From positions 1 through 36,171 of the forward strand of contig VBLZ01000096.1 in NCBI GenBank assembly GCA_005878515.1: DNA of 36,171 nt, written 5' to 3'. A model generated the notes under the pieces. That model was not told the DNA's origin. It did not search any database and saw nothing but the letters and a program-made list of their open reading frames with translations. Positions 6,350 through 24,462 of the stretch are shown piece by piece. This DNA comes from Methanobacteriota archaeon (GTDB lineage Archaea > Thermoplasmatota > Thermoplasmata > RBG-16-68-12). The position numbers and the translations under genes were made by a program. The stretch's first letter is position 1. Each line of letters begins with the position of its first letter.

Positions 6350-8470
6350 ATGTCCCGCACGGGACTCGATGCGATCTTCTCGCCGTCGTCCATCGCGATC
6401 GTCGGCGCGTCCCGTCACCGCGGGAAAATCGGATACGAAATCCTTCGCAATCTCATCTTGAACGAGTACCAGGGGACGATTTATCCGGTGAATCCGAAGG
6501 CGACGAGCATCCACGGGATCCGTGCCTACCCGAGCGTCCTCGAGATCCCCGGCCCGGTGGACCTCGCGGTGATCACCGTACCCGCCGAGGTCGCGCTTCA
6601 AGCCGTCGAGGACTGCGGAAAGAAGGGGGTGAAAGGCCTCGTCGTGATCACCGCGGGCTTCCGAGAAATTGGCGACGTGGGAACGGACCGGGAGGCGCGG
6701 CTCCTCGCGGTTTGCGCGCAATACCGCATGACGATGATCGGCCCGAACTGCATGGGTGTGATCAACACCCATCCGGACATCCGCATGGATGCGACGTTCG
6801 CGCCGACGCCGCCGTTGCCCGGCGGAATCTCGCTCGCCACGCAGAGCGGCGCCCTCGGGATTGCGATCTTAGACCATGCGAAAACGCTTGGCGTCGGTTT
6901 CGCGAAGTTCTGCTCCTTAGGGAACAAGGCGCAGGTGAGCCTGAACGATCTCCTTGAGATGTGGCATGAGGACCCGGATACGAAACTCATCCTCGCGTAC
7001 ATCGAGAATTTCGGCAACCCGCAAAATTTCGTCCGGATCGCGCGCGAGACCACGAAGGACAAGCCCGTGATCGCCGTGAAGTCGGGTCGATCGGAGGCCG
7101 GAAGCCGCGCGGCGGTTTCGCACACCGGTTCCTTGGGGGGCTCGGACCTCGCGGCGGAAGCCGTGTTCTCCCAGACCGGCGTGCTGCGGGCGAACTCGAT
7201 CGAGGAGCTGTTCGACCTGGCGATGGCGTTCGCCTTGCAGCCCATCCCCCGAGGGGACCGCGTCGCGGTCGTCTCCGATGCGGGCGGCCCGGCAATCATG
7301 TGCGTCGATGAGCTGGTTGCCCAGGGCCTCCGGCTCGCGGAGCTGGCGCCGGCGACTCGGGCGGACATGAAGAAGTGGGCCCCTCCGGAAGCGTCGCTCC
7401 AGAACCCGATCGACCTGACCCCGCAAGGGAGCCTCGACGATTACCGCCGCGCGATGGACGCCGTCCTCGCGGATGGATCCGTCGACGCCGTGATCGCGAT
7501 CTACGTGCCGCCCGTACGCGTGGACGAAGTGGACGTCGCCCGCGCGATCTGGGAGATCGCCCGAAAACACTCGAAGCCGGTCTTGTGCAACTTCCTCGGA
7601 CGCGCCCAAGATAGTGCCGGCTTCGTCGAGCTCGTCACGCATGGCGTGCCCTCGTACTCGTATCCGGAGAGCGCTGCGCGGGCGCTCGCCGCGATGCACC
7701 GGTATGCCCGCTACCGGGACCGGGACGAGGGAGACCTTCGCACGTTCCCGGTCGATCGCGGCATTGCCGAATCCGTCTTGGCCCAGAGCAGGGCGGAGAA
7801 TCGAACGTTGTTGCGCGCCGAGGAGGCGAACCGCCTCCTGGAGACGTACGGGATTCGCACCGCGAAGACTCGGTTGGCACGCACCGTGGCGGATCTGCCG
7901 GCCACCGCGGCAGAAATCGGATACCCGGTCGTCCTGAAGGCGGTCGGCCCCGCTCTTGTGCACAAGTCCGAACTACAAGCGGTCCTGCTCGATGTCCGCG
8001 GGAAGGAGGACCTAGTCGAAGGGGCGTCACGCCTGGCCCGCCGCCTCCGGGACCGAGGCGTCACCATCGAGGGATTCCTGGTCCAAGAGTTCGTGACCGG
8101 TGGCACCGAGGTCCTCCTGGGCATGACCCGAGACAAGGTCTACGGGCCGTGCCTTGTCTTCGGACTCGGCGGCATCTATGTCGAATACCTGAAGGACGTT
8201 GCCTTCGGACTGCCGCCGTTGACCGATCGGGACGCGATGCGAATGATCGAATCGATCCGGACCTTCCCGCTGTTGAAAGGCGTGCGAGGCGAGCCTCCCC
8301 GAGACGTGAAGGCGTTGCAAGACGCCCTCCTGCGACTCGCCCAGCTCGTGTCGGATTCCGACCGGATCCAGGAGATCGATCTCAATCCGGTGATCGTCCT
8401 CCCGGAGGGAAAGGGTTACCGGGCCGTCGACGCCCGGATCGTGCTCGCGCCGGCCCCGCCGCGGGTCTAG
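6350..8470 (+). CDS. acd: Acetate--CoA ligase (ADP-forming), fused alpha/beta subunits.
   Basis: 706 aa. The CoA-binding N-terminus reads SIAIVGASRHRGKIGYEILRNL...YPVNP. The phosphohistidine loop is AVSHTGSLGGS. The C-terminal half is ATP-grasp-like (GYPVVLKAVGPALVHKSELQAV). Length and domain order match the fused archaeal ACD enzymes. Confidence 0.9.
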   Translation: MSRTGLDAIFSPSSIAIVGASRHRGKIGYEILRNLILNEYQGTIYPVNPKATSIHGIRAYPSVLEIPGPVDLAVITVPAEVALQAVEDCGKKGVKGLVVITAGFREIGDVGTDREARLLAVCAQYRMTMIGPNCMGVINTHPDIRMDATFAPTPPLPGGISLATQSGALGIAILDHAKTLGVGFAKFCSLGNKAQVSLNDLLEMWHEDPDTKLILAYIENFGNPQNFVRIARETTKDKPVIAVKSGRSEAGSRAAVSHTGSLGGSDLAAEAVFSQTGVLRANSIEELFDLAMAFALQPIPRGDRVAVVSDAGGPAIMCVDELVAQGLRLAELAPATRADMKKWAPPEASLQNPIDLTPQGSLDDYRRAMDAVLADGSVDAVIAIYVPPVRVDEVDVARAIWEIARKHSKPVLCNFLGRAQDSAGFVELVTHGVPSYSYPESAARALAAMHRYARYRDRDEGDLRTFPVDRGIAESVLAQSRAENRTLLRAEEANRLLETYGIRTAKTRLARTVADLPATAAEIGYPVVLKAVGPALVHKSELQAVLLDVRGKEDLVEGASRLARRLRDRGVTIEGFLVQEFVTGGTEVLLGMTRDKVYGPCLVFGLGGIYVEYLKDVAFGLPPLTDRDAMRMIESIRTFPLLKGVRGEPPRDVKALQDALLRLAQLVSDSDRIQEIDLNPVIVLPEGKGYRAVDARIVLAPAPPRV

Positions 8471-9478: not shown

Positions 9479-10912
9479 ATGCCTCGCGACCTAGGCGGCC
9501 AGCGTATGCAAGGGGCGATCGAAGCTCTGCTTTCCGGTCTCGTACTCCGAGGCCTCGGCCCGGCCCTCTCGGGAATCCTGATGGCCGCTCCGCTGAAGAA
9601 AGTCGCCCGGGCGCAGCTCAAGAAGATCTACGTCCTCGATGAGCGCGGCGAGATGGCCGGGGAATACATCCTCGATCAGGATTGCCCGATCGACTACAAC
9701 GACTTCCTGAAGGTCTTGCCCGACGAAGGGATCGGCGACCGCGATTCCTTGTTCGTGGGCGAATATGTTTTCACGGCGTTCCAGAGCGGCAAGTTCGTGT
9801 TTGTCCTCCTGTCGCGCGGCCAACTCGCGCCCGAGGATGTCAACTGGACCGCCCTCCTCCTTACGGCCGCGGATTCGCATCTCGCGTCCGCGGTGAATCG
9901 TCCCGCACCCGCCCGTGCCGCCGAACCGAAACCGGACGTCGACAAGGGAATCGCGGAACGCGATGCGCGCCTCCAAGCGAAAGAGAAGTCCCTCGCCGAG
10001 CTCGAGGCGAAGCTCAAGGCGGATGCGGCGAACCTGAGTGGACGGCAGGAGGAGCTGGACCGCCAGAAGGCGAGGCTCGCGGCCCTCGCGGACTTTTCCA
10101 CGCAATTGCAGGATGCGGTGTCGAAGGGCGCCTCCCGGTCGGCGAAGACCCTGGAGATCGCGGAACAGCTCGCGACGAGCTCCAACGAGGATTCGAAGAA
10201 GGCCGAGTCGAAGGCCAGCTCGGACGCGCGACAAGCATTCGAGCAGGAGCGGAAAGCGCTCATCGCGGCGAAGACCGAACTCGAAACTCGCTACCAAGAG
10301 GCTTCTGCCCGAATCGCCCAACTCGAGAAGGAGGCGAAGGACTCGGTCGCCTTCCTCGAAAGGGAACGGGCGGAGACCGCGGTTCGGTCGGCGGAAGAAG
10401 AGAAGACCCGCCGCGAAATCGAGAGCCGGGTGGCCGACCTGAGTCAGCGTTTCACGTCAATGGCGAAAGAGCGGCTCGTGGCCTCGCATCGCCCCCCCGG
10501 CGAGGTCTCTGACGAGGTTCGGAAGGCGATGGAAGGCGAGAAAGCCGAGCTCGCGCGGGAGCGCAAGTTCCTCCAGCGTCGGGCGATCGAGCTCCTGGAC
10601 CGCGAGGAGCGGGTTCGGGACCGCGAAGCACGGGTCGAGGAACGAGACCGCGAATTCGGGCGACGGGACAAGGATCTCTCCGCCCGCGAAGAGGATCTAG
10701 ACCGGCAACGGACGCTCCTCGCGCAAGCAAAGCCGCAGGCGCCCGAGATCCGCGCCGAACCGGACGAAGCGAAGAAAGACATCGAGCGGCGCGTGAAGAT
10801 CATCCAGCAGAAGGCGCTGGAGCTGCTGGACCGGGAGGAAAAACTGCGGAGGCGCGCGGCGGAGCTCGAGGCGATGGAGTCCCGGCTCTCCGGAAGGGTG
10901 ACGGTCGAGTGA
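9479..10912 (+). CDS. Coiled-coil protein with an N-terminal hydrophobic segment and a juxtamembrane-type alpha/beta module. It appears paralogous to the cytoplasmic tail of the downstream giant protein.
   Basis: 477 aa. The N-terminus is AIEALLSGLVLRGLGPALSGILMAAPL followed by the basic stretch KKVARAQLKK. The module KIYVLDERGEMAGEYILDQDCPIDYND...FVFVLLSRGQLAPEDV spans nt 9620-9900. About 330 aa of E/R/A/K/L-rich sequence follow. Two copies of the motif (K/R)(F/I)(L/I)Q+(K/R)A.(E/D)(L/V)LD(R/Q)EE+(L/I/V)R lie at nt 10562-10621 and 10790-10852. An alternative start is the ATG at 9506. Confidence 0.85.
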   Translation: MPRDLGGQRMQGAIEALLSGLVLRGLGPALSGILMAAPLKKVARAQLKKIYVLDERGEMAGEYILDQDCPIDYNDFLKVLPDEGIGDRDSLFVGEYVFTAFQSGKFVFVLLSRGQLAPEDVNWTALLLTAADSHLASAVNRPAPARAAEPKPDVDKGIAERDARLQAKEKSLAELEAKLKADAANLSGRQEELDRQKARLAALADFSTQLQDAVSKGASRSAKTLEIAEQLATSSNEDSKKAESKASSDARQAFEQERKALIAAKTELETRYQEASARIAQLEKEAKDSVAFLERERAETAVRSAEEEKTRREIESRVADLSQRFTSMAKERLVASHRPPGEVSDEVRKAMEGEKAELARERKFLQRRAIELLDREERVRDREARVEERDREFGRRDKDLSAREEDLDRQRTLLAQAKPQAPEIRAEPDEAKKDIERRVKIIQQKALELLDREEKLRRRAAELEAMESRLSGRVTVE

Positions 10913-11175: not shown

Positions 11176-14100
11176 GTGAAGGCGCGAACCGCGTTCCTCG
11201 TCGCCTTCGTCATGCTTGCAACCGCCGCCCTGGTGGTCGTCAGCCAGTCGATGCCCGACCCGCTCGCGAAGTTCAGGACTCCCGACGGTCGGCTCACGAT
11301 TCCGGGCCGTGCGTTGACCCCGGAACTGCAACGGCTGCTGTTCCATGGCAATGACCTGCAGCCTCTCACCAATGTCACCTTCCTTCTCCCGGTGCGATCT
11401 TCGTATCCGACGGAGCGCCTCGTCGCCATCTCATTCGCGTCTCCAAATCTCAACGTCTTGGTTCATCCGCGGCAAGCGCCGGAAACGTGGGGCAGCGCCA
11501 TCGATCACGTCCTCCGAGTGTGGTTCCCTCCCGTCGACTGGCACGAGGTGGCAGTCGGATTCCGAAACTCGATCCGGGACGGCGTTGGGTGGTTTTTCGA
11601 TCTCTTCACGATGAACGCCAAGGCCGACGCATTGACGGTCGATTCGACGACCGTCGCAGTCGTCGACCCCGCCGCGGCAACCTGCACGACCTCCCAATCG
11701 GCGGCCGCGGGCGACAACGCGGTACTCGTGATGCTCAGCAATCGCGGGCCCACCGCGTACGCGAGCGTCACGTACGGCTCGGTCAGCCTGAGCCTGATCC
11801 CCGGGACCGCCACGAGCGGCACCGGAATCGTGCGCTCGGAGATGTGGTTTTACCAAGGCGCGATTCCAGGCGGCGCTCAAACGATGACGGCCACCCTCGT
11901 GAGTGGCACCGCGAAACAAGTGTGTGCCACGGTCCTCTTAGGGGGAGTCTTGGCCGCGACCCCGACCGCAGGGGGAACCGCGGCGAGCGGGACGACTGCG
12001 AATCCGAACATCTCGATCTCCCCGGCATCCGCCGGTGAACTGGCCTTCGCGGTCCTGGGGATCCGAGGGACCACGGCACCGACGGCCGTCACCGGCACGG
12101 GGGCCACCGCGACGTCTCTCTATGGAATCGCGCCGACTCAGTGCGCCGCCGCGCCCAATAGTTTTTGCGGCGCGGGGGCCGACATGCCCTTCCCCGGGAC
12201 GGCAATCACGTGGACGGACGGCAACGCCACCGACTGGGTCATCTCCGCGGTTCGCGTGTTGCCCACCCCGAACTGCGGCGTTGCGTCGGGGAACTGCTAT
12301 CGGATCGGCGCGGGTGGGACGTGGGCCACGGGTGCGAACTGGTCGAACACGTCCGGCGGGGCGGCGTGCGGCTGCACGCCCGTTGCGACGAACGATGTGA
12401 TCTTCAATGCCACCCCCACCGGCACCACGACCCTTGCGGCAGCCACGACGATCGCGAGCATCGACATGACGGGCTTCACCGGCACGCTCGATACGACCGC
12501 ATCCAACTGGGCGCTCACCGTCAACGGTCCATTCGCCATTCAGGGGACGTTCCAGGCTCGGAGTTCGACGATTACGATCACCGGGGACGTCGACGTGCTC
12601 ACCGCGGCGACGATCATCAATCTCGGCGCATCGAGCTGGACGGTCAACGGCCTGTGGACCAACCTATCGACCTCCGCCTCGTGGGCCGCGGGGACGAGCA
12701 CGGTGACGATTCGAGATGCGACAAGCGGGACGCTCACATTCGCGGCACTGGCTGGCGGAGCGAACGAGTTCAACAATCTCACGCTGGATGCCAGCGTGAC
12801 TACGAGCATCACGTACACGATGGCAGTAAACCCGTTGAGGATGGGAGCGACCCTCACGATCCGCAACTCGACCGGCGGGGCGACGGGACCGACTATCTTG
12901 ACGACATCGGCGTCGAACTTCGGCATCACCGCGGGGGCGCTCGCCATTGCGACCTTCGGAAGCTTGACCGCGAACGGGTCGGCCATTGCGTTCAACGGCA
13001 ACGTGAACGTCAGCGCGGCGAACGGCTACGTCGTCATGGGTACGTCGGCATGGACCGTCACGGGGACCTGGACGAACGCGTCGACGTCCGCCTCGTGGAA
13101 CCCCGGGACCGGTACGGTCACGTTCACGAGCGCGACCGGCGGGACGATGACGTTCGCCGGGACGAATCTTCCGGGCAACGAGTTCAACAATGTTTCTTTC
13201 AACTCCTCGGCGGCGTCCGTCCAGACGTTCACGATGGCGACAAGGGCCCTCATCTGGGGCGGGACGCTCACGATCTCGGACGGTTCCTCGACGACGGCGC
13301 TCGCAACGGCCAATCTCGGCCTGACTGGCGGCGCACTCAGCGTCGGCAACGGCGGTATCCTCACCGCTAACGCTTCCACGGTAACCGTGTCGAGCGTGGC
13401 GATGACCGGGGGAACGAGCGGAACGATCACGCTCACGACCGGCTCGTTCACCAGCAGCGGCAACTGGGACACGAGCGGAGCCGGCTCCGTGTTCACGAAG
13501 GGCACGAGCACGGTGACGATGAGCGGTGTCGCCAACATCGCCATTCTGAACGCGAGCAACAACTTCAACAGCCTCGTCATCTCGGCGGCGGGAACGGTCA
13601 CCCAAACCGGCCTCGTGGACGTCTCCGGGACCTTGACGGTGAATGCCGGCTCAATCCTCGCGAGCGGCACCTTCACGCTGACCGTGGCCACCCTCGCAGC
13701 GAACATGGCGGGTGGAATCACCGGGGGGGCGGCGGGCACGAAGACGATCACCGGCAATGTCAGCATCGCCGCCTCGGGATACTTCGGCTTCGGTGCGACG
13801 ACTTGGAACTTCGGCGGTTCGTGGACGAACTCGTCGACGAGCGGATCGTGGTCCGCCGGAACGGGGACGGTCGTCTTCAACTCCGGCTCGTCTCGCACGA
13901 TGACCTTCGCCAACTTGGGAGTCTCTGAGTTCAACAACGTGCAGTTCGGCCCTACCGCCGCCGCGACGTTCACTATGGCGACGAACGGCCTCCGATGGGG
14001 AGGCACGTTGACCCTCAACAACAATGCGACCCTTTCGACCACGAACCTCGCGTTGACGGGCCCGGGAGGAAACCTCACGGTGAACAACGGGGCCACCTTG

Positions 14101-17100
14101 ACGGCGGGCACGTCCGCCGTGAGTGTGACCAACGTGGCGATGACCGGCGGAGTCTCCGGGACGATCACGGCCTCGGGCTCATGGACCGTCGCAGGGAACT
14201 GGGACACGTCCGGAGGGGGCTCCGTCCTCACGGCGGCTTCGAGCACCGTCACGATGAGCGGAGCCGCGAAGACCGTCAAGATCCTGAACGCCTCCAACGG
14301 CTTCGGCGCACTCACGATCAGCGGCACCGTCACCGCGGCATCGGCGATCACCCTGGCCGGCCTCCTGACGGTCAGCGGCACCTTCGACACGACCGCGACT
14401 AACTACGGCCTGTCCGTCGGCGGCGGCCTGACGGTCAGCAGTGCCACGGGGGTCTTCCGGTCAAACGGATCGACCGTCTCGGTGGCCGGGAATGTTTCCG
14501 TGAACAATGCGGGCGGCTACATCACGTCAGGCGGCGCCGGTTCGTGGACCGCCTCCGGATCCTGGACAAACGCGTCCACATCCGCGTCCTGGAATTTCGC
14601 GTCTCCCATCATGTTCAACTCATCGGCCTCCCAGACGATGACCTTCGCCGTCCTCCCGGGAGCTGCCTCCGAGTTCACCGACATCGCCTTCAACAGCGGC
14701 GCGTCGACCGTCACGTTCACCATGGCGGCGAACCGCCTCATTTGGTCGGGGACCTTGTCGGTCCAGGGTGGGGCCGGAGCGACGACCCTCGCGACGAGCA
14801 ACCTGGCCCTCACCGGCGGCGCACTCACCCTCGGCAACGGGGGTGTGCTGACCGCGAATGCATCGGCAGTCAGTGTATCGAACGTCGCGATGACCGGCGG
14901 TACCTCGGGCACGCTGACGCTGACCACCGGCGCGTGGACCGTGACCGGGATCTGGGACACCTCCGGCGCAGGATCGACATTCGCAGCCGGATCGAGCACC
15001 GTCACCATGACCGGAGCGGGCACGACCGTCAAGATCTTGGACTCGTCGAACGGGTTCGCCGCTCTCACCGTTAGCGGCACTCTCTCCGCGGCATCGGCCC
15101 TCACAACGGCGGGACTCGTCACCGTGAGCGGCACGCTCGACACGACGGGCGCGAACTACGGCCTCACGATCGGCGGCGGACTCACCGTCAGCGGTGCGAC
15201 CGGGGTCCTTCGCGCGAACGCCTCGATTGTCTCCGTCGCCGGGAACGTGAATATCAACAGCGCCACGGGCTACATCACGTCGACGGCCGGCGGTTCTTGG
15301 ACCGCGTCCGGATCATGGACGAACTCCTCGACATCGGCCTCGTGGAGCTTCGTCGCCCCGATCACCTTCAACTCCTCGGCCTCACGAACAATGACATTCG
15401 GCAACCCGACCCTGGAGTTCGCCGGGAACGTCACGTTCAACTCCGGCGCCTCGACGGTCACGTTCACGATGGCGGCGAACAGCCTGGACGTCGGCGGGAC
15501 GCTCACGATAGCGGGCGGAGCCGGCACGACGACGCTGAACACGAGTGGTTCAAACCTCGCGATCAACCCGGCCACACTGGTCGTGAACGCGGGAGGAGCC
15601 CTCACGGCCAACGGGTCCATCATCACGGTTACCTCGATGGATACCCATCTCGGGACATTCACGGTCGGCGCCTCGACCGTCGTCGTGAACGCGTCGGGCG
15701 GCTCCATTAACGTCACGCAGACGGTCAACAATCTCACGGTCACACCCGCCGTCTCGACGACGTTCACAGGATCTCTCACATGGACAGGAACGCTCGCCTT
15801 CACGAACGCCGGGAGCGTCGCATTCGGAACGAACAGCCTGACCTCGAGTGGCGCCGCGACCTTCACGTTCGCGTCGGCAACGATCACGATGAGCTCGGGG
15901 AACTGGGATACGTCTTCGGCCACGACCTTCACGGCGACGAGTTCGACGGTCACGTTCTCAGGGACGGGGAACCTTCGAGTCGGGGGAAGCGCCTCCTTCG
16001 GCGCGCTCACGGTCAGCGGCGGCACCCGGACCCTCCAGAGCCAACTCACGACGTCGGGACTGCTGACCCTTTCGGGCGGCACCCTCGCCAAGGGGACGAA
16101 CGCGCTCACCGCCAACGCCGGGATCACGATGTCGGGCGGCGCGCTCACCTCCACGTCCGGTGCGGTCAGCATCACCGGCAATGTATCGATCGCGGCCGCG
16201 TCCTACATCGTCTTCGGTTCCGAGACTTGGACCGTGAGTGGCTCGTGGACGGACAATTCCACGTCGGCGAGTTGGTCGATTGGAACCGCGACCGTGGCCT
16301 TCAACGCGTCCTCGGCGCAGACGATGACGTTCGCGGCGCTCCCGGGGAACGCACCCGAGTTTTACAACGTGACCTTCAACAGTGGCGCGTCAACGGTCAC
16401 ACTCACGATGACGACGAACGCGCTGGCTTGGTCGGGAATCCTCACGGTCCAAGGAGGGGGCGGGGCGACGACGCTCGCCACGAGCAATCTCGGACTCACC
16501 GGAGGCGCCATCGTCGTCGGCAATGCGGGAGTCCTCGCCGCGAACGCCTCCGCGGTGTCGATATCCGGATTGACGATGATTGGAGGGACCAGCGGCACGT
16601 TGACGCTGACGACCGGTTCATGGGCCGTCTCCGGCAACTGGAACACCAGCGGGGCGGGCTCGGCATTCTCGAAGGGAACATCGACGGTCACCTTCACCGG
16701 GGCCGGGCAGACGGTATCCATCCTCAACGCTTCGAACGGGTTCTACAACCTCGCCGTCTCGGGGACCGTCACCCAGTCCACCGCCATCGATGTGACGAAT
16801 TCCTTGACGGTGAGCGGAACTCTGACCACCGGAGGGTTCAACATTACGGGCGGTTCGAACCTCTCCGTCCCGGATGGTGGCACCCTGGCGGCAGGCACCT
16901 CGACGTCCACGTTCACGAACGTCACGATGACCGGCTCGATCTCAGGCACGATCACCCTGACGGGCGCATGGACGGTCAGCGGTTCTTGGGACAGCACCGG
17001 GGCAGGCTCGGTTCTGAACCCCGGGACATCGACCGTGACGTTTACCGGGACCTCGCAGACAATCAGCCTCGCGGCGGGCCAGACGTTCTACAATCTCACA

Positions 17101-20100
17101 ATCGGTGGCACGGTTTCCATCAACTCGTCGGTGACCGCGGCGGCGACGCTGACGGTGAACAACGGGGCCGTCCTCACAAAGACGGGCCAGACGATCGCCT
17201 TCAACTCCTTGACGCAGAACGGGACCGGGAGCATCGTCGACGGAGCGATCACCGTCGTGAACTTCTCCGTCACGAACAGTGATGGAACGAATCTCACGGC
17301 CATCAGCGTGTTCACGACATGGACGATCGACGCGGACTACACGTGGACCCATTCATCCACGGTCGCGACCTCGACGATCACCTTTACCATCGGAGGAAAC
17401 ACAATCGGGCATCGATTCAATGTGACTAAGGACGCCGTGGACTTCACGAATGGCTTCGTGAACGGCTCCGGGCAGATCATCTTCACGATGCTCGGTTCGG
17501 ACCCGGTCGTCGACGTCCGCCTTACATCGCCCTGCGGGGGGAATCGATATTGGATCGGTGGGACGGGTGGCTGGTCCCAGACAGGCCATTGGGCGGATTC
17601 GTCGGGCGGGGTGAATGGATGCTCCGTGCCGAACTCTTCGAATCCGGTCTTCTTTGACGCGAGCTCCGGAGGCGGAAGCGTCGCGATTAATCTGAATGGG
17701 GCCGCGGCTTCGCTCAACACGACCGGGTGGACCGGGACGATTGCAATCGGATCGTTCGACCTCGCTGTGAGCGGCGACATTATCCATGCCGCGGGAATCA
17801 TTTCGATTGGCGCCTCCTCGAATGCCGGCCTGACGGCAACCGGGACGCTCACTCTCTCGGGTTCCGCAGTCCTCGACGGGTCCGGCGTGGCGTCTCTGGT
17901 TGCGATCTCCGGCGACACGTCAATCGCGAGTACGTCGGCCTACTTCCGGATGGGCAGCGGCACCTGGACATTCGCAGGCTCCTGGTCTAACAGCAGCACC
18001 TCGACGAACTGGGTCGCGGGAACCGGCGTGGTCATCTTCGATTCGCCGTCTTCGCGAACGTTCACTTTTGCGAATCTGGCGGGCAACGAATTCCACGATG
18101 TGACATTCCAGTCCACGGCGGGCAGCGGCGCAATCATCTTCTCGATGGCAGCGAACGGTCTGCGCTGGAGCGGACTCCTCCAGATCCAAGATTCCGCGGG
18201 ATCGACGACCACCCTGGCGACATTGAATCTCTCCCTGACCGGCGGATCCCTTGCCGTCGGCAACTCGGGAGTGCTCATCGCAAACGCGTCGAGCGTCGCC
18301 GTGGTCGACGTCGCGATGACCGGCGGCGCGTCGGGAACGCTGACCCTCACGAGCGGGTCTTGGACCGTGAGCGGGCAGTGGGACACCTCGGGCGCCGGTT
18401 CGACGTTCGCTCGAGGCACCAGCACGGTCACGATGTCGGGCACGTCGGCGAGCGTCGCGACCCTCGATGCGACCAACGGATTCAACAATCTGGTCATCTC
18501 TGGGACCATCACGCAGAACACCGCGCTCGAGGTGCGCGGCACACTGTCCGTGACGGGCAGGCTCACCACAGCGGGAAACAACATCACCGGCGGTGCCAAC
18601 CTCGCGATCTCCGGAGGCGGAAGCCTGATCGGGACCGCGTCTTCGATCGTCGTCTCCGGGGTGACGATGAACGACGCCGGGACGAATTCCATTTCCCTGA
18701 CGACCGGCTCGATTTCCGCGTCGGGCTCATGGGACACCTCCGGATCGTCCTCGGCTTTCATTGGTGGCTCGTCCACGGTGACCCTCACCGCCGCCTCCGG
18801 AACGATCGCTCTCGGGCCTGCTCAAGCGCTCACGTCGTTAATCATCGCAGGGAGCCTCTCGTCGGTATCTCCGTTGACGGTCTCTTCCCTCACCATCTCC
18901 TCGGGTGGACTCGCCAACGGCCCGCACGCGCTCACGGTGAACGGGAACGTGACGTTGGCCGGTGGCTACCTCACCTCGACGTCCGGGTCCGTCTCGATCG
19001 CGGGAACCGTGAACGTCTCTTCGGCGTCGTCCTACATCGCGTTTGGCTCGGGAACCTGGGTCATCTCCGGGAATTGGACGAACGCGTCGACCTCGGCATC
19101 TTGGTCCGCAGGATCTGCCGTTGTCACATTCAACTCGACGACGGATCAGATCATGACGTTCGCTGGTGCCAACTTGGCCGGCAACGAATTCAGCACGATT
19201 GAGTTTGACAGCGGCTCCTCGACCACGACGTTCACGATGGCCTCCGACGGGCTTGTGGCGCAGACAATCACGATCCAAGGTGGCCCCGGGACGACCACGT
19301 TGACGACCTCGGGCGCGAGCCTCCCGATTATCGCGAACGCCCTGACGGTTGACGTTGGCGGGGCGCTCACCGCGAACGCGAGCATCCTGACGGTTCGCTC
19401 GCTGAGCACTGCCGCCGGCGCATTTGCTGCCGGGACCTCGACCGTCGTCGTCAACATCTCCGGCGGCTCCATCAACGTCACGCAGACTCTGCACGATGTC
19501 GTCGTGAGCCCTGGGATCAGCACGACCTTCGCCTCGAGCATCACTTGGTCCGGGGCGCTGACACTGACGAGTTCCACGTCCATTTTCGACGGCAATCTCA
19601 CTTCGAGCGGTCCTGCGGTCCTCAATCTGGGAACCTCCACGCTGTCGATCGCGGGATCATGGGACACCTCCTCGGCAGCGACCCTCATGTCGATCGGCTC
19701 CGCGGTGACCTTCACCGGCGGGAGCGGCTCGATCACCCTCGGTGCGGGCCAGCGGTTCGCCACACTGACCATCGCCGGGACCGTCGCTCTCGGGTCCGAC
19801 CTGACCGCGGACACCCTGTCCGTGACGACCTCGAACGTACTGACGATGACGAGCCACCGCATCGCATTCAACAGCCTGACGGTCAACGGGACGATTGCGG
19901 ACGGATCCGTGAACGCGACCGACCTCACGGTCACGAACAGCGATACGACGGCCTTGGTCACCATCGCGGGGTTCAGCGAGTGGTCCCGAGGTTCCGCGTA
20001 CGCCTGGACCCATACCTCCAGCGAATCGTCCCAGACGATCACGTGGTCGATTGGTGGAAATGCCGCGGGCATCCCGTATACGGTGACGAAAGACGGCTCG

Positions 20101-23100
20101 TCGTTCGCAACCGGAACCGTCACCAGTTCCGGTCAGGTCGTCTTCACGATGCTCGGGTCCGACCCCGCGATGCAAGTGACGGTGCACAATCCGATTCCGC
20201 CGCCATGGTGGCAGTCCTCCTACATGCTTGCGATCTTTCCCATTGGAATCTTGTTAGGTGTTGCAATGTTCGCGCAACGACAGCGCTGGAGGCCCGCGAA
20301 GGCCTTCCTCGTGGACGACAGCGGGAGAATGCTCAGGGAATTCACCCTGGACTCGGCCTGCCTGGTCACGTACGACCAGGCGGTCCAGGCCGGCATCTTG
20401 GACGCGGTCGAGAAGCCAATCAAGGTCGCAAAGTACCACGGCCAGACGGTCCGCGGGGATGCACTGGCGGTCGTGCTCCTCGCCTACGGACCGGTCACGC
20501 CGGAGCACGTAGAGTTCGCTCGGGAGATGCTCGTCCAGATTCAGGACAAATTCGAGGACGCGGTCAAGCAACGTCTGGAAGAGGCCCGTGCCCAAGAGGC
20601 CAACGTGGCGACGCAGATGGACGACCTCGCGACCCACCGGGCCGAAGTCGAGGCCCGAGCGGCCGAAGTCCAAACGATGGCCCAGCAAGCGGAGACCGTC
20701 CAGGCGAAAATCACCGCGGACACCGAGGCCGTCGAAGCGAAGGAGCAGGATCTTCGACGACGGGAAGAGGAGTTGGCGAACAACCGCAAGGCCGTCGATG
20801 AGCTGGCCCGCCAAATCGAAGAGGACCGGAGCTCCCTCGACCGACGCACGGGGGAAGTTCAAGACCGGGCGGCCGAAATCGCCGCGAAGTCCGAGACGGT
20901 CCAGGGTCGAGAGGAAGCGGTCAGCGCGCTCGAGGAGACCCTTCGGGACCGAGACACGGCCCTCGCGACGGGAGAAGCCGGACTTCAGGAAATCCGGGAG
21001 CGCCTTGCGACGGACACGTCGGCGGTGCAAGCGAGACTCGAAGAAGCCGGACAGCGTGAGGAAGCCCTCGGTCGCAATCAAGAAAACCTCTCGAATGCCC
21101 GCGAGAAATTCGAGGCGGACCAGAGAGAGCTGCTCGAGTTCAAACGTTCCATCGACAGCCGGGTCAGCGCCGTCGAGGAGACCGAAGTCGCGATGGACCG
21201 TCTGTCGAAGGACCTCGCCGCGCGAGAAGCCCGCATCGTGCCCGAGGAGTCACGCCTCGCGGAGCGGGCGAATGTCGCGAACCAGAAGGAAGCCGATCTG
21301 AAAGCCCGCGCGGACGAGCTGACAACGAGAACCCAGACGCTCGACGGGCGCGAGCAGGAGCTGACCAGCCGCGAAGTCGCGGTCAACGAGGACCGCGTGG
21401 TCCTCGAGGAAGCGCGCGGGGCGTTCGAGTCCGATCGGAGAGAGTTCGAGGAGCGCAAGAACCAGCACGACGAAGAGGCGCGCCGACGTCGAAACGACCT
21501 GGACGGTCAAGCCAAGACGGTCGGCGAGAGTCAGCTTCGCTTGGCCCAGGAGAAGGAAAATCTCGATACTGCGCACAGCGAGAGGAGTCAGGCTATCCTG
21601 TCCCGGGAGATCGAGCTCGAGGCCCGCGAACAATCCCTCCAAGAGAACGAAGAAGCCAACCGCACCCAGGCGGACGAAAACGCCAGGCGCTTTGGCGAAC
21701 TGGCCGGTCGGGAGGAGTCCCTCGAAATCGAAGCAGCGAAGGCCGACAAGGTCCGGAGCGACCTCGAAGCCCGGAAGGCCGATCTCGCGAATCGCGCCAA
21801 AGAACTCGAGGAAGAGGGGGCTCGATTGCGGGGCGAGGAGACGAAGGCGGCCGAGGAGAGACGGACCTGGCAGACGACGTTGCAGTCCGAGCAAGCGTTG
21901 CTCAAGGGCCAGCGAGACGCGTTCGAGCAGGACGCCGCTTCGGCGCGTGCCTCGTGGGCCGATCGGGTAATGCGGATTGAGGCGCGCGAAGTCGACGTCG
22001 AAGAAAAGGAAGAAAAGGTCCGGACCGACATCGACTGGGTCGCTCGAAGCGACGAGGACCTCAAGCGCCGCGAGAAGGCCGCCGAGGAAGCGGGGCGGTC
22101 CGCGGCGCAGGTGCAGGCGAGCGCCGAACGCGCTACGAAGGAGGCCGAACAGCGATTCCTCGAGATCGAGTCGCGCGAACGCGCCCTTCGGGAAGAGGCC
22201 GCGCACGAAGCGATCGAACTCACCAAGCGGACGGAGGCGTTGAAGCAATTCGACACCGAGCTGAGTTCGAAACAGGCCGACTTCGAGAAGGAGCGAACGG
22301 TGCAGACCCAGCGACTCCAGGAGACCGAGACCGAGCTGCATTCAAGGGCCGACACCCTGGAGGCGAAACGCCGCGAACTAGAGGAACGAGAGACCCGCAT
22401 CGCGGGGACGGAGGAGTCGCACCGGCAGAGCGACCAGCGACTTCAGCAGGAACGTGCCGACCTCCAGGCGACCGCGAAACAGCTCGAATCCCACCAGCTC
22501 GAACTCGCGCAGCTCAAAGACCGTTACGAGTCGGAAGCCGCACGCGTCCGCAGTGAAGCGGAGGGCATGCGGCAATCCGTGGCGGCCAAGGAGTCGGAAC
22601 TGCATGCCGAGCGCGAGCGGATCGAGCGCGATTCGTCCGCCCTCCAGGAGACCCTCGGCGCGAAGGCGAAGGAGATGTCGGTCCGAGAACGAGCGCTCAC
22701 CGCGCGCGAGGCAGAGCTCCAAACCGAAGAGCAAGAGCTCGAGGCCCGCGGACGAGAGCTCGAATCAAAAGAACGCCAAGCCGAAGCCCATCTGACCGAG
22801 ATGTCCGCGCAGGCAATGGCCCTCATCCGGCGAGAGCAGGACCTGAACGCCCGAGGAACCCAGATCGAACAGACCGTGCGTCGGTTCGAGTCGGAGGCGA
22901 CGGAGAAACGCCGCGAGTGGGAGTCCCTTCAGACGAGCCTGAAGTCGCAGCAAGCCCAATTCACTGTGTCGTCGGAATCTCGCGCCGGCGAGCTCGCGAA
23001 GAAAACGGAGGAGCTTGAGGGACGGGATCGCAGCCTGCGCGCGTCTTCGGCCCAGTTGGAGGTCGAACGATCCAAGCTCGATGCTGAAGCGAAAAACCAA

Positions 23101-24462
23101 TCCGCCAAAAGCGCAGAAGCGGATGCGGCCTGGCGACGATCGGAAGCCCGTCTCGCGGAGCTCAAGGCGAAGGAAGACGAGTTGCTCCGTGCCCGCCAGT
23201 CCTTCGAATCGGACCGCTCCACCTGGTCCGCCCGACGAACCGAAGAGCTGAAGCAACTCGAGGCGACGCGGGATGCGGCCGCACAACAAGCCCAGCAGAC
23301 GGAGCGGCTCCTGGCGGAGTCCCAGCGCAGGGCCCTCGTCGCAGAAGAAGCGGAGCGCGCGGCAAAACGCCAGACGACCGACCTCGCCGCTCAACAGGCG
23401 CGCCTGGAGAGTCGCCGGGCCGAAGCCGAGAAGGCGGAGCGCGACGCACAAGGTCACCTGGCACAGTTGCAGGAAGCTTCGCGGAAATTGGCGGTCAAGG
23501 ACATGGAAATCGTTACCGCCGTCAAGGATCTCGAGGCGCGGCAGTCGAAGCTTGCGGCCGCGGAGAGGGATTCCGCGGCGATTCAAGCGGAGTTGCGCTC
23601 CCGAAAAACGACCTTGGACCAAGACGCCGCACGAATCACCGCGTCGTCGGACCAGCTGACGATGCGCCAGAAAGATCTGGAGTCGCGGACGGCCTCCCTC
23701 GAGACCAAGGTAGCCCAGGCCTCTACGAAAGAACAGGCCCTGGCGACGGAACTGCAACGCGCGGACAACCTCATGGAGGATCTCACCAAGAAGGAGCACG
23801 ACCTTCGCGCCCGCGAAGAGGCCGCGAAGACTTCCGAGAAGACTCTCGCGGCACGGGAGACGACCCTCGTCGCACGCGATGCCGAGGTCCGGGACGGGAT
23901 GCGGAGCCTCGAAAAGCTCCGCAAGGAAATCGAAGACCAGCGCGGCGCCACCGAGGAAGACCGTCGAACCGCGAAGACCACCCGAGAGGAAGCGGAATCG
24001 ACGAAGCGCGAGGCAGACAAGATCCGGGCTCAGGCCGACGAAATGCAGTCGGAGGTGAACAAGAACCTCCGGTTCCTCCAGAAGAAAGCCCTCGACGTGT
24101 TGGATCAGGAGGAGAAAATCCGAGCTCGCGTCGCCGCGATCGAAGGGGAGGAGAAATCGCTCGACACCCGGGCGGAAATCCTCGAAGGGAAAGAGCGGGC
24201 CCTCGAAGCGGACCAGGCCGCTCTCGACTCCAAGGTCGCGAAGCTCCAGGCCGAGATCGATCGATTGCGCGGGAGCATTGCCGATGCGGAGAAATCCGGA
24301 GGCCCGACGACCGCCGCGATGGAAGAGTGGAAGAAGGACGTCGAGAGTCGCGTGAAGATCATTCAGAAGAAGGCCATGGACCTGCTGGACCGCGAGGAGA
24401 AACTCCGGAAGAAAGAGGAGGAGCTCCGCGCGCTCGCGAGCCAACTCGGCGTGAACCCCTGA
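11176..24462 (+). CDS. Giant (4,428 aa) single-pass membrane protein. It has a signal/anchor, a ~3,000-aa uncharged T/S/G/A-rich beta-solenoid-like repeat ectodomain, a TM helix, a ~95-aa alpha/beta module and a ~1,300-aa charged coiled-coil tail.
   Basis: The ORF is an uninterrupted 13,287 nt. The GTG at 11176 is the first start codon after the in-frame stop at 11080-11082. It is followed by MKARTAFLVAFVMLATAALVVVSQ. The TM helix SSYMLAIFPIGILLGVAMFAQ lies at nt 20215-20277 and is followed by RQRWRPAK. The tail is E/R/A/K/Q/L-rich with very few Pro or Gly residues. Confidence 0.92.
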   Translation: MKARTAFLVAFVMLATAALVVVSQSMPDPLAKFRTPDGRLTIPGRALTPELQRLLFHGNDLQPLTNVTFLLPVRSSYPTERLVAISFASPNLNVLVHPRQAPETWGSAIDHVLRVWFPPVDWHEVAVGFRNSIRDGVGWFFDLFTMNAKADALTVDSTTVAVVDPAAATCTTSQSAAAGDNAVLVMLSNRGPTAYASVTYGSVSLSLIPGTATSGTGIVRSEMWFYQGAIPGGAQTMTATLVSGTAKQVCATVLLGGVLAATPTAGGTAASGTTANPNISISPASAGELAFAVLGIRGTTAPTAVTGTGATATSLYGIAPTQCAAAPNSFCGAGADMPFPGTAITWTDGNATDWVISAVRVLPTPNCGVASGNCYRIGAGGTWATGANWSNTSGGAACGCTPVATNDVIFNATPTGTTTLAAATTIASIDMTGFTGTLDTTASNWALTVNGPFAIQGTFQARSSTITITGDVDVLTAATIINLGASSWTVNGLWTNLSTSASWAAGTSTVTIRDATSGTLTFAALAGGANEFNNLTLDASVTTSITYTMAVNPLRMGATLTIRNSTGGATGPTILTTSASNFGITAGALAIATFGSLTANGSAIAFNGNVNVSAANGYVVMGTSAWTVTGTWTNASTSASWNPGTGTVTFTSATGGTMTFAGTNLPGNEFNNVSFNSSAASVQTFTMATRALIWGGTLTISDGSSTTALATANLGLTGGALSVGNGGILTANASTVTVSSVAMTGGTSGTITLTTGSFTSSGNWDTSGAGSVFTKGTSTVTMSGVANIAILNASNNFNSLVISAAGTVTQTGLVDVSGTLTVNAGSILASGTFTLTVATLAANMAGGITGGAAGTKTITGNVSIAASGYFGFGATTWNFGGSWTNSSTSGSWSAGTGTVVFNSGSSRTMTFANLGVSEFNNVQFGPTAAATFTMATNGLRWGGTLTLNNNATLSTTNLALTGPGGNLTVNNGATLTAGTSAVSVTNVAMTGGVSGTITASGSWTVAGNWDTSGGGSVLTAASSTVTMSGAAKTVKILNASNGFGALTISGTVTAASAITLAGLLTVSGTFDTTATNYGLSVGGGLTVSSATGVFRSNGSTVSVAGNVSVNNAGGYITSGGAGSWTASGSWTNASTSASWNFASPIMFNSSASQTMTFAVLPGAASEFTDIAFNSGASTVTFTMAANRLIWSGTLSVQGGAGATTLATSNLALTGGALTLGNGGVLTANASAVSVSNVAMTGGTSGTLTLTTGAWTVTGIWDTSGAGSTFAAGSSTVTMTGAGTTVKILDSSNGFAALTVSGTLSAASALTTAGLVTVSGTLDTTGANYGLTIGGGLTVSGATGVLRANASIVSVAGNVNINSATGYITSTAGGSWTASGSWTNSSTSASWSFVAPITFNSSASRTMTFGNPTLEFAGNVTFNSGASTVTFTMAANSLDVGGTLTIAGGAGTTTLNTSGSNLAINPATLVVNAGGALTANGSIITVTSMDTHLGTFTVGASTVVVNASGGSINVTQTVNNLTVTPAVSTTFTGSLTWTGTLAFTNAGSVAFGTNSLTSSGAATFTFASATITMSSGNWDTSSATTFTATSSTVTFSGTGNLRVGGSASFGALTVSGGTRTLQSQLTTSGLLTLSGGTLAKGTNALTANAGITMSGGALTSTSGAVSITGNVSIAAASYIVFGSETWTVSGSWTDNSTSASWSIGTATVAFNASSAQTMTFAALPGNAPEFYNVTFNSGASTVTLTMTTNALAWSGILTVQGGGGATTLATSNLGLTGGAIVVGNAGVLAANASAVSISGLTMIGGTSGTLTLTTGSWAVSGNWNTSGAGSAFSKGTSTVTFTGAGQTVSILNASNGFYNLAVSGTVTQSTAIDVTNSLTVSGTLTTGGFNITGGSNLSVPDGGTLAAGTSTSTFTNVTMTGSISGTITLTGAWTVSGSWDSTGAGSVLNPGTSTVTFTGTSQTISLAAGQTFYNLTIGGTVSINSSVTAAATLTVNNGAVLTKTGQTIAFNSLTQNGTGSIVDGAITVVNFSVTNSDGTNLTAISVFTTWTIDADYTWTHSSTVATSTITFTIGGNTIGHRFNVTKDAVDFTNGFVNGSGQIIFTMLGSDPVVDVRLTSPCGGNRYWIGGTGGWSQTGHWADSSGGVNGCSVPNSSNPVFFDASSGGGSVAINLNGAAASLNTTGWTGTIAIGSFDLAVSGDIIHAAGIISIGASSNAGLTATGTLTLSGSAVLDGSGVASLVAISGDTSIASTSAYFRMGSGTWTFAGSWSNSSTSTNWVAGTGVVIFDSPSSRTFTFANLAGNEFHDVTFQSTAGSGAIIFSMAANGLRWSGLLQIQDSAGSTTTLATLNLSLTGGSLAVGNSGVLIANASSVAVVDVAMTGGASGTLTLTSGSWTVSGQWDTSGAGSTFARGTSTVTMSGTSASVATLDATNGFNNLVISGTITQNTALEVRGTLSVTGRLTTAGNNITGGANLAISGGGSLIGTASSIVVSGVTMNDAGTNSISLTTGSISASGSWDTSGSSSAFIGGSSTVTLTAASGTIALGPAQALTSLIIAGSLSSVSPLTVSSLTISSGGLANGPHALTVNGNVTLAGGYLTSTSGSVSIAGTVNVSSASSYIAFGSGTWVISGNWTNASTSASWSAGSAVVTFNSTTDQIMTFAGANLAGNEFSTIEFDSGSSTTTFTMASDGLVAQTITIQGGPGTTTLTTSGASLPIIANALTVDVGGALTANASILTVRSLSTAAGAFAAGTSTVVVNISGGSINVTQTLHDVVVSPGISTTFASSITWSGALTLTSSTSIFDGNLTSSGPAVLNLGTSTLSIAGSWDTSSAATLMSIGSAVTFTGGSGSITLGAGQRFATLTIAGTVALGSDLTADTLSVTTSNVLTMTSHRIAFNSLTVNGTIADGSVNATDLTVTNSDTTALVTIAGFSEWSRGSAYAWTHTSSESSQTITWSIGGNAAGIPYTVTKDGSSFATGTVTSSGQVVFTMLGSDPAMQVTVHNPIPPPWWQSSYMLAIFPIGILLGVAMFAQRQRWRPAKAFLVDDSGRMLREFTLDSACLVTYDQAVQAGILDAVEKPIKVAKYHGQTVRGDALAVVLLAYGPVTPEHVEFAREMLVQIQDKFEDAVKQRLEEARAQEANVATQMDDLATHRAEVEARAAEVQTMAQQAETVQAKITADTEAVEAKEQDLRRREEELANNRKAVDELARQIEEDRSSLDRRTGEVQDRAAEIAAKSETVQGREEAVSALEETLRDRDTALATGEAGLQEIRERLATDTSAVQARLEEAGQREEALGRNQENLSNAREKFEADQRELLEFKRSIDSRVSAVEETEVAMDRLSKDLAAREARIVPEESRLAERANVANQKEADLKARADELTTRTQTLDGREQELTSREVAVNEDRVVLEEARGAFESDRREFEERKNQHDEEARRRRNDLDGQAKTVGESQLRLAQEKENLDTAHSERSQAILSREIELEAREQSLQENEEANRTQADENARRFGELAGREESLEIEAAKADKVRSDLEARKADLANRAKELEEEGARLRGEETKAAEERRTWQTTLQSEQALLKGQRDAFEQDAASARASWADRVMRIEAREVDVEEKEEKVRTDIDWVARSDEDLKRREKAAEEAGRSAAQVQASAERATKEAEQRFLEIESRERALREEAAHEAIELTKRTEALKQFDTELSSKQADFEKERTVQTQRLQETETELHSRADTLEAKRRELEERETRIAGTEESHRQSDQRLQQERADLQATAKQLESHQLELAQLKDRYESEAARVRSEAEGMRQSVAAKESELHAERERIERDSSALQETLGAKAKEMSVRERALTAREAELQTEEQELEARGRELESKERQAEAHLTEMSAQAMALIRREQDLNARGTQIEQTVRRFESEATEKRREWESLQTSLKSQQAQFTVSSESRAGELAKKTEELEGRDRSLRASSAQLEVERSKLDAEAKNQSAKSAEADAAWRRSEARLAELKAKEDELLRARQSFESDRSTWSARRTEELKQLEATRDAAAQQAQQTERLLAESQRRALVAEEAERAAKRQTTDLAAQQARLESRRAEAEKAERDAQGHLAQLQEASRKLAVKDMEIVTAVKDLEARQSKLAAAERDSAAIQAELRSRKTTLDQDAARITASSDQLTMRQKDLESRTASLETKVAQASTKEQALATELQRADNLMEDLTKKEHDLRAREEAAKTSEKTLAARETTLVARDAEVRDGMRSLEKLRKEIEDQRGATEEDRRTAKTTREEAESTKREADKIRAQADEMQSEVNKNLRFLQKKALDVLDQEEKIRARVAAIEGEEKSLDTRAEILEGKERALEADQAALDSKVAKLQAEIDRLRGSIADAEKSGGPTTAAMEEWKKDVESRVKIIQKKAMDLLDREEKLRKKEEELRALASQLGVNP
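12271..17526 (+). repeat. Ectodomain super-module 1. It has a Cys-containing head (NCGVASGNCYRIGAGGTWATGANW), six W-anchored repeat units and a beta-sandwich-like tail (TITFTIGGNTIGHRFNVTKDAVDF...IIFTMLGSDPVVDV).
   Basis: The first Trp codons of the anchor motif SWTxxGxWTNxSTSxSW lie at nt 12636, 13051, 13804, 14545, 15298 and 16228. Spacings are 415, 753, 741, 753 and 930 nt. By eye, units 4 and 5 are about 80 percent identical at the nucleotide level. Confidence 0.85.
17527..20193 (+). repeat. Ectodomain super-module 2. It has a head (SPCGGNRYWIGGTGGWSQTGHW), two W-anchored units and a tail (TITWSIGGNAAGIPYTVTKDGSSF...VVFTMLGSDPAMQV).
   Basis: The head and tail are clearly homologous to those of super-module 1. 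Anchor Trp codons lie at nt 17965 and 19057. The tail nucleotide strings ttcacgatgctcggttcggacccg (17483) and ttcacgatgctcgggtccgaccccg (20145) match. Confidence 0.85.
20215..20277 (+). other. Predicted single transmembrane helix of the giant protein (aa ~3014-3034).
   Basis: It is the only ~21-residue hydrophobic stretch after the N-terminal signal. The ectodomain side is uncharged and the C-terminal side is basic (RQRWRPAK), which by the positive-inside rule implies N-out/C-in topology. The local GC content drops visibly here. Confidence 0.7.
20560..24440 (+). other. Cytoplasmic coiled-coil region of the giant protein (~1,300 aa).
   Basis: The region is rich in E/R/A/K/Q/L, with long Pro/Gly-free runs. 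A degenerate xRE(E/Q/R)x(L/V/I)xxxE element recurs about 20 times. Examples are QGREEAVSALEE, DGREQELTSREV, EAREQSLQENEE, AGREESLEIEAA, ESRERALREEAA and SVRERALTAREA. Confidence 0.75.

Follow-up and report, generated by a model that had tools for sequence, protein, structure and literature searches.

The 36,171-nucleotide (nt) stretch analysed here, referred to as the window, covers positions 1 to 36,171 of contig VBLZ01000096.1 (assembly GCA_005878515.1) from a Methanobacteriota archaeon of the GTDB lineage Thermoplasmatota, Thermoplasmata, RBG-16-68-12. It encodes two consecutive proteins, a small one called as a 477-amino-acid (aa) open reading frame (ORF; 9479..10912, + strand) and a giant one of 4,428 aa (11176..24462, + strand), whose C-terminal ends carry the same pair of short motifs. 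The occurrence of this twin motif is confirmed and lies far beyond chance. Judged from sequence, the twin motif is a duplicated module that acts at the protein level and sits at the membrane-distal tip of a coiled-coil stalk, and a function as interaction, oligomerisation or docking helix can reasonably be inferred from the features of the module and from the conserved adjacency of the two paralogous genes. The reading that we favour, with a probability of about 0.42, is a tip-to-tip bundling of stalk ends, which would include heterotypic contacts between the tip of the giant and that of the short paralogue encoded beside it.

Exactly two copies of a motif of about 20-40 aa, [KR][FI][LI]Q..A...LLD[RQ]EE.[LIV]R, are found at the C-terminal end of each protein, as had been proposed in an earlier reading of this DNA (the original prediction). 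The regular expression proposed there matches aa 363-380 and 440-457 of the small protein and aa 4299-4316 and 4394-4411 of the giant, leaving 20 and 17 residues, respectively, after copy 2, and it has no further match in the approximately 1,600 aa of coiled coil of the two proteins. Copy 1 is KFLQRRAIELLDREERVRDRE in the small protein (10565..10627, + strand) and RFLQKKALDVLDQEEKIRARV in the giant (24070..24132, + strand); both had been placed one codon too early, as KFLQ begins at nt 10565 and not 10562, and RFLQ at nt 24070 and not 24067. The positions given for copy 2 were exact. Its core, RVKIIQQKALELLDREEKLRR at 10790-10852 in the small protein and RVKIIQKKAMDLLDREEKLRK at 24349-24411 in the giant, reads RVKIIQ.KA..LLDREEKLR in both and lies on a terminal helix modelled by AlphaFold2 (AF2) at 10763..10894 and 24310..24444 (both + strand), respectively. 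The copy 2 segments are identical at 54 of 63 nt (85.7 %, in agreement with the earlier figure of about 86 %) and share 26 of 39 residues, where 25 had been counted. In an ungapped comparison of the two coiled coils, the best 21-aa window contains 17 identities, while the next diagonals have 11-12 and the maximum in 100 shuffles is 11. A hidden Markov model (HMM) of the single unit, 42 aa long and built from 50 family copies, gives 52.2 bits for copy 1 and 63.7 bits for copy 2 of the small protein, and 54.9 and 62.4 bits for those of the giant. No degenerate extra copies are present in either protein, the next-best site reaching at most 2.3 bits, and in a six-frame scan of the whole window the HMMs of the unit and of the head domain described below reach significant E-values only in the small and giant ORFs.

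The motif is also better conserved than the coiled coil around it, as had been claimed. At least 187 homologues of the small protein are found at E<=1e-3; among the 120 matches listed, identities over the aligned regions range from 56 to 94 %, nearly all proteins are about 466-469 aa long, and the named ones come from Thermoplasmata or Methanobacteriota metagenome-assembled genomes (MAGs). When column identity is averaged in 20-aa blocks over 99 small-protein orthologues, both motif blocks reach 0.96 and the head 0.90-0.92, against mostly 0.54-0.76 for the rest of the coiled coil, where a single block at aa 321-340 reaches 0.85. Homologues recovered with the last 249 aa of the giant were 11 fragments, none of them a full-length giant, and fragments of giant orthologues retain both copies and the EEWKKDVE.RVKIIQKKA lead-in. 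In an alignment of 42 modules from all paralogue groups, the giant module of the window is 34-45 % identical to the small-type modules and to those of groups c and d (defined below), and the motif cores are near-invariant. Pairwise codon identity at amino-acid-conserved columns is 0.54 in copy 1 and 0.60 in copy 2, values equal to those for head (0.59) and coiled coil (0.54), which indicates that selection acts on the protein; the nucleotide identity of copy 2 is thus explained by its amino-acid identity together with codon bias. Moreover, the paralogue signatures, IIQQKAL[ED]LLDREE in the small proteins and IIQKKA[MFL][DE]LLDRE[EQ] in the giants, are stable across the clade, pointing to long independent purifying selection and not to gene conversion.

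The pattern of conservation goes beyond what a heptad stripe would show. With the register fixed by the 7-spaced Leu/Ile stripe, the b, c and f positions have a conservation of 0.74-0.80 in the motif cores (0.90-0.97 by residue class) and of 0.40 (0.50 by residue class) in the flanking helix after copy 1. The core adds large hydrophobic residues at b, c and e (F/I, I/L/M and L, respectively) and has an invariant Glu at a. About 10 residues of each copy form a hydrophobic patch, with invariant polar Q, K/R, D, E and R residues around it, and the neighbouring helices are highly charged; in the module alignment, the helix downstream of copy 1 offers one hydrophobic residue per heptad, and 61 % of the residues in the inter-copy segment of the small protein are charged. 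By a helical-wheel estimate, the hydrophobic arc covers approximately 240 degrees, or two thirds of the circumference, over three turns, and the helix would therefore be packed by more than one other helix or lie in a groove.

The linkers predicted to break the helix before copy 2 are reproduced by AF2 in both proteins, at AKPQAPEIRAEP in the small one and at SGGPT in the giant. In the model of the small protein (99 sequences, mean predicted local distance difference test (pLDDT) score of 78), the Pro-rich, flexible linker AKPQAPEIRAEP (aa 417-428; 10727..10762, + strand) has pLDDT values below 50 at residues 409-418, counted from M10, and its length differs among orthologues. The model of the giant module (42 sequences, mean pLDDT 89.7, predicted template modelling score 0.47) consists of helix A at residues 2-87, a loop at 88-92 and the terminal helix at 93-137, the loop being SGGPT (aa 4374-4378 of the giant; 24295..24309, + strand); the individual helices are confidently predicted, but their mutual arrangement is not. 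A Foldseek comparison of the module model with the PDB gave zero matches. The position of the module is fixed, its start lying 28-41 residues from the C-terminus. The distance from copy to copy is 69-77 residues in the small proteins, with the variation located in the Pro/Ala linker, and a constant 94-95 residues in the giants, as these have an 18-residue insertion in helix A relative to the small proteins (window 24190-24243, approximately aa 4341-4358 of the giant). This fixed spacing is kept in giant modules that are only about 50 % identical to that of the window, which suggests a length constraint specific to the giants. A simple hairpin between copy 1 and copy 2 of the same chain is unlikely on geometric grounds: copy 2 would come to lie opposite the segment of helix A with the lowest conservation and the highest charge and, given the 18-aa insertion, the terminal helix of the giants could not reach copy 1.

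When compared with 1.84 billion representative proteins, a profile of the twin module gives 58 matches at E<=1e-3, 43 of them at E<=1e-10, and the strong matches all belong to one family and all end 15-30 residues past copy 2. The view that the motif is a dedicated module and not a set of generic heptads is upheld by its restriction to two copies, the conservation maximum that it shares with the head, the retention of its outward-facing positions, these 58 database matches and its fixed place. Four architectures can be distinguished in the family: (a) the small type, of 468 aa; (b) the giants, with lengths of 2,099-4,767 aa; (c) a type without membrane helix, about 250-360 aa long, in which head, coiled coil and module follow an MPPPPKK start; and (d) proteins of 413-562 aa with a transmembrane helix and a giant-type head. 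The head HMM matches every complete module-bearing protein, and the weakest module matches (P0175, P0177, P0180 and P0182-P0184), which have no head, were taken as spurious. Copy 2 is universal, copy 1 is degenerate or absent in some group-c proteins, and the stalk length ranges from about 100 to 1,400 aa. The general layout runs from an optional giant ectodomain through a membrane anchor, the head and the coiled coil to copy 1, and it ends, after a flexible Pro/Gly linker, in a terminal helix of about 45 aa that carries copy 2.

Two back-translated motif patterns, compared with 185,579 genomes that each represent one species, yielded 81 confirmed matches at 77 loci (numbered with the prefix L), and all of them but one are labelled as Thermoplasmata, Methanobacteriota or Methanomassiliicoccales MAGs. 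The outlier, L070 (VBOD01000130.1, labelled Nitrospirae bacterium NS_1), is a 4.7-kb contig from the same soil study that encodes a typical giant C-terminus, with a 142-aa module that differs from that of the window at only about 16 positions, and its label is probably a binning error. The named members of the clusters matched by the module are also Thermoplasmata. The family, which is uncharacterised, is restricted to Thermoplasmata on this distribution, and the module is specific to it. Scans of both proteins against Pfam, NCBIfam and PADLOC gave only coiled-coil noise (none in Pfam at E<=0.1), and the family, its architecture and its motif were not found in the literature searches and curated libraries used.

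Some relatives depart from the general layout. In three loci, a third paralogue of 223-229 aa is located directly upstream of the small gene (L001:9194-9883, L004:9191-9862 and L006:8048-8728); it shares the head and has LRDYA.QMQR.F at the end of a short coiled coil, with neither membrane helix nor twin motif. It is absent from the window between nt 9346 and 9479, where tblastn finds only the head of the small protein. Another genome, which also has small and giant genes, encodes a divergent coiled-coil ORF of 1,168 aa (L083:3145-6648, CAVYJM010000015.1) with a degenerate copy 1 (RSAQRKALDIFLQEEKLRARE) and a disordered Pro/Gly/Lys tail in place of copy 2, and this may be a decaying or re-purposed paralogue.

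The likeness of the two proteins had been described for their termini, and there it stands, but it is not confined to the terminus: the whole cytoplasmic architecture, including a longin/roadblock-like head, is common to both. When the small protein is compared by BLASTP with the cytoplasmic part of the giant, the alignments cover the C-terminal module (E=1e-12), the stretch just behind the membrane helix (KKIYVLDERGEMAGEYILD versus KAFLVDDSGRMLREFTLD) and the coiled coil in between, and the proteins are therefore paralogues over the entire cytoplasmic part. The head (9614..9895 in the small protein, head HMM 127.5 bits; 20296..20580 in the giant, head HMM 94 bits; both + strand) comprises about 95 aa and forms a five-stranded antiparallel sheet flanked by helices. 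In the AF2 model of the small protein it follows a beta-beta-alpha-beta-beta-beta-alpha order (strands 37-44 and 50-55, helix 64-70, strands 81-84, 87-94 and 97-104, helix 109-130) with a pLDDT of about 80-86. The top 50 Foldseek matches of this head in the PDB are all of longin/roadblock type and include TRAPP Bet5/sedlin, LAMTOR, zeta-COP, the N-terminal domains of AP mu/sigma, Streptomyces Roadblock/LC7, MglC and Asgard Roadblock2 (probability 0.93-1.0, E 2e-3 to 2e-2, target TM-scores mostly 0.4-0.6). The modelled fold thus agrees with that of the Roadblock/LC7-longin superfamily. Comparison of 13 head domains with Pfam up to E=10 gave no sequence match to Robl_LC7, Longin or any other curated family, and neither the head profile nor the module profile has sequence relatives in the PDB. 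One Cys (in DQDC of the small protein and DSAC of the giant), one Glu and one Gly are invariant in all five head-domain groups, including the paralogue without motif. In group-c proteins (P0156, P0158, P0160, P0168, P0169 and P0170), a change of the LLDREE Asp to A/Q accompanies a change of the Arg of the head loop G.DR[QD]S to G.

The adjacency of the two genes is conserved as well. In the window, both lie on the + strand with a gap of 263 nt between the ORFs, and the small gene is directly followed by the giant in L001-L003 (giant of 4,431 aa) and L006 (5,462 aa), and by a split giant in L004. In at least 15 genomes, a small-type and a giant module are found on the same strand of one contig at a distance of 8.3-15.5 kb, as would be expected if the two genes adjoin and the giants have about 2,700-5,100 aa, and both types are present in about 30 of some 41 incomplete MAGs. 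In EA_19, the small gene is replaced by a soluble group-c gene. In L085, a membrane-anchored group-d gene is found 4 kb from a soluble group-c gene, and the 15.8 kb examined contain no giant.

In tip-to-tip bundling, the stalks would be parallel dimers held together at the membrane end by a dimer of heads, given the N-terminal anchor and the common tendency of roadblock/longin-type heads to dimerise. Each motif would spend one hydrophobic seam on contacts inside the dimer and keep a second one exposed; this outward-facing seam would bundle with the tip motifs of other stalks, be they of the same or of the other type. The tail of the giant would in this way be fastened to the short paralogue encoded beside it, and a membrane-associated assembly would be built. 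Several observations weigh against such an arrangement. The motif is so invariant that no covariation between small and giant tips is left, the giants varying between M, F and L at one position where the small proteins stay L; the copies are 69-77 residues apart in one partner and 94-95 in the other, so that in a strict two-point heterotypic register the linker would have to absorb the difference; some soluble members have copy 2 only, and the twin arrangement is therefore not obligatory; and some genomes encode module proteins without a giant in the contig examined. Furthermore, a common third partner would explain the same data equally well. The motifs may then be docking sites for a partner other than a tip, either the family's own head, which would chain the proteins head to tail or, as in longin SNAREs, close them into an autoinhibited form, or an unrelated cytoplasmic protein captured at the membrane-distal end in the manner of golgin tethers. 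We regard docking of this kind as possible but doubtful. It would account for the conservation of outward-facing positions and invariant polar residues, for the co-occurrence of tip module and head in every complete protein, for the two conservation maxima at head and tip, and for a stalk that is free in length (100-1,400 aa) with a fixed tip, as expected of a tether. On the other hand, no conserved candidate partner gene stands out beside the pair in the neighbourhoods examined, where the other genes are metabolic. As for docking to the head, the joint change of head-loop Arg and motif Asp in group c is a weak lead, which comes from about seven sequences, is confounded with phylogeny and fails in the giants, and the 223-229-aa paralogue bears a head without the motif, so the coupling is not strict in both directions.

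In another explanation, the motif acts within a single stalk only. The two copies could serve as trigger or clamp sites of high stability within the chain or dimer, nucleating a parallel two-stranded stalk and locking its register distally, with nothing bound in trans. The weakness of the stalk beyond copy 1, with one hydrophobic stripe per heptad, E/R/A at a positions and the highly charged inter-copy segment of the small protein, would call for strong local clamps, and the motifs hold the only dense hydrophobic clusters near the tip. Nevertheless, positions a, d, e and g suffice for a dimer, yet b, c and f are equally conserved (with an invariant Ile at c and Lys at b), the Glu at an a position is invariant, and copy 2 is carried by a helix that a flexible linker sets apart from the stalk, where a register clamp would hardly be expected; a purely clamping role is thus unlikely. 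Copy 2 could also be an amphipathic helix that tacks the stalk tip back to the membrane, given that VKIIQKKAMDLL is hydrophobic and Lys-rich and lies on a flexibly tethered terminal helix of membrane-anchored proteins. This is very improbable, as the hydrophobic arc of about 240 degrees is not a single face, a conserved acidic DREE block follows directly, the net charge is about zero, copy 1 lies inside a continuous long helix, and soluble members retain the motif. Finally, the similarity might have no function and reflect generic coiled-coil likeness, recent gene conversion or a nucleotide-level element, in line with the 86 % nucleotide identity of the copy 2 segments and with the noise matches of the coiled coils to SMC, JetC and CRWN_N profiles. 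This explanation is refuted by the 17 of 21 identities compared with a shuffle maximum of 11, by unit scores of 52-64 bits against at most 2.3 elsewhere, by a search of 1.84 billion representatives that returned family members only, and by paralogue-specific signatures that are stable together with synonymous sites that are unconstrained.

Conserved assembly or docking segments at the end of long coiled coils are well known in principle, while the family, architecture and motif described here were not found in the literature and libraries searched. Roadblock/longin-type domains typically act as dimerisation platforms. The juxtamembrane head of both proteins shares the small alpha/beta fold of the Roadblock/LC7-MglB and longin superfamily, but it has no sequence match in Pfam, NCBIfam or the PDB, and no GTPase gene is found among the neighbours of the pair; the fusion of such a head to an N-terminal anchor, a very long coiled coil and a conserved tip was not found in the literature searched. 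Some examples of C-terminal assembly segments in coiled-coil proteins are the DivIVA tetramerisation domain, the helix-termination motif TYRKLLEGEE of intermediate filaments, the myosin II assembly-competence domain and the spectrin tetramerisation site. Like these, the module is a short, highly conserved segment at the end of a long variable rod, from which end-to-end or tip-to-tip association might be expected by analogy, and LLDREE bears a superficial resemblance to the LLEGEE of intermediate filaments. It differs in that the motif is duplicated, copy 2 lies on a linker-tethered helix and the membrane anchor is at the opposite end, and there is no Pfam match to intermediate-filament or DivIVA families. 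A precomputed match to PF27881 CRWN_N (plant lamin-like) is flagged as weak in those small-protein records that show such flags and carries no flag in a single giant; most likely it reflects coiled-coil noise. Membership of the intermediate-filament/lamin-like proteins, including plant CRWN/NMCP, was rejected in view of the lack of a rod profile match in Pfam at E<=0.1.

Golgins are eukaryotic tethers, peripheral or tail-anchored. Like the present proteins, they are fixed to a membrane by one end, and their coiled coil, which varies in length, leads to a short conserved motif at its tip, which captures partners in golgins, but their sequence is unrelated, and here the anchor is N-terminal and the giant adds a 3,000-aa ectodomain. 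In a functional sense, not one of homology, the pair has the anchor, variable stalk and conserved far-end motif of membrane-anchored coiled-coil tethers or skeletons. The longin SNAREs Sec22, Ykt6 and VAMP7 likewise combine a longin-type domain, a helical coiled coil and a membrane anchor in one polypeptide, and their helix may fold back on the longin domain; in our proteins the order is reversed, no segment matches the SNARE motif, and the coiled coil exceeds theirs in length by a factor of 5-25. Membership of the longin-type SNAREs, in which a longin domain precedes a SNARE motif of about 60 aa and a C-terminal transmembrane anchor, was rejected, as the anchor is N-terminal to the head and no SNARE match exists in Pfam. 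SMC and archaea-specific SMC-related proteins (ASRP) also have long coiled coils, and a weak ASRP match happens to cover the module. The SMC-type scores (TIGR02168 51.9 bits, cut-off 567; TIGR02169 39.3, cut-off 729; NF045487 23.5, cut-off 300) are below the cut-offs, ATPase head and hinge are lacking, and the termini are the membrane helix with the head and the twin motif, so these matches were dismissed as coiled-coil noise. The same holds for anti-phage defence, for which PADLOC gives only JetC coiled-coil noise (E about 4e-3, 13 bits). MIM1, the paxillin LD motif and the coiled-coil trigger-site consensus were compared by eye and mismatch at key positions.

If the tips do join giant and small stalks, the module would be the assembly interface of an undescribed cytoplasmic coiled-coil system of soil and sediment Thermoplasmata, physically continuous with a surface structure of 3,000 aa, and it would add a non-Asgard archaeal use of the longin/roadblock fold, as the membrane-proximal head of a long stalk. 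A broader reading, which is distinctly unlikely, takes the pair as an archaeal transmembrane linkage that would run from the giant beta-rich surface protein through the membrane helix and the head to the cytoplasmic coil, about 190 nm long in the giant if fully extended, whose tip would bundle with those of the co-encoded short paralogues into a sub-membrane lattice. Were it correct, this would be a previously unknown prokaryotic membrane skeleton that links the outside to the inside of uncultured Thermoplasmata, with a logic like that of spectrin or LINC-type assemblies. In any case, the 40-aa module is a compact and highly specific marker of the family and can help to annotate giant genes, which are often fragmented by gene callers.

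The remaining parts of the two proteins are as follows. All 98 full-length orthologues of the small protein (455-485 aa) begin at an MQG that matches M10. M10 at nt 9506, rather than the first ATG at nt 9479, is probably the true start, and the protein would then have 468 aa like its orthologues. An N-terminal hydrophobic helix, GAIEALLSGLVLRGLGPALSGILM (9512..9583, + strand), has a borderline Kyte-Doolittle maximum of 1.56 over 19 aa and is modelled by AF2 as a helix at residues 3-25 with low pLDDT; it is probably a membrane anchor. The stalk (9938..10486, + strand) is formed by two long helices, at 145-229 and 234-327 in the AF2 model (numbered from M10), with a break near aa 238-242 of the ORF, and the coiled coil amounts to about 330 aa of interrupted helix followed by the twin motif.

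The giant starts with a hydrophobic signal or anchor at aa 5-23, followed by an ectodomain of about 3,000 aa (11245..20205, + strand). It consists of 57 % S/T/G/A with 5 % charged residues, contains about eight repeats of about 250 aa (W[TS]N.STSASW ... EFNN.TF) and has no Pfam match. Two larger units, each ending in FTMLGSDP (aa 2103 and 2990), can also be recognised, and one giant orthologue carries the NCBI name 'DNRLRE domain-containing protein'. A transmembrane helix, SYMLAIFPIGILLGVAMFA (aa 3015-3033; 20218..20274, + strand; Kyte-Doolittle 2.07), is followed by the cytoplasmic QRQRWRP and the head. The cytoplasmic stalk upstream of the tip module (20593..24033, + strand), recognised by its sequence, its composition and the SMC-type noise matches, has about 1,150 aa, and the coiled coil including the twin-motif end about 1,280 aa. 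In L004, located on a 1.1-Mb contig, gene calling splits the giant into pieces of 479 and 3,771 aa and also reports several short antisense ORFs (L004:11674-21407); a frameshift, a fault of the assembly or one of the gene calling could each account for this.

The other neighbours of the pair are metabolic genes, among them those for an ADP-forming acetyl-CoA synthetase, a glyoxalase, an ACT-domain protein and a Cys/Met enzyme dependent on pyridoxal phosphate. Upstream in the window lie the genes of a 1,458-aa NosD/Big_5 surface protein (1859-6235, - strand) and of the ADP-forming acetyl-CoA synthetase (6350-8470, + strand). Both are conserved neighbours in L001, L004 and L006, and the acetyl-CoA synthetase gene also adjoins the group-d/group-c pair of L085.

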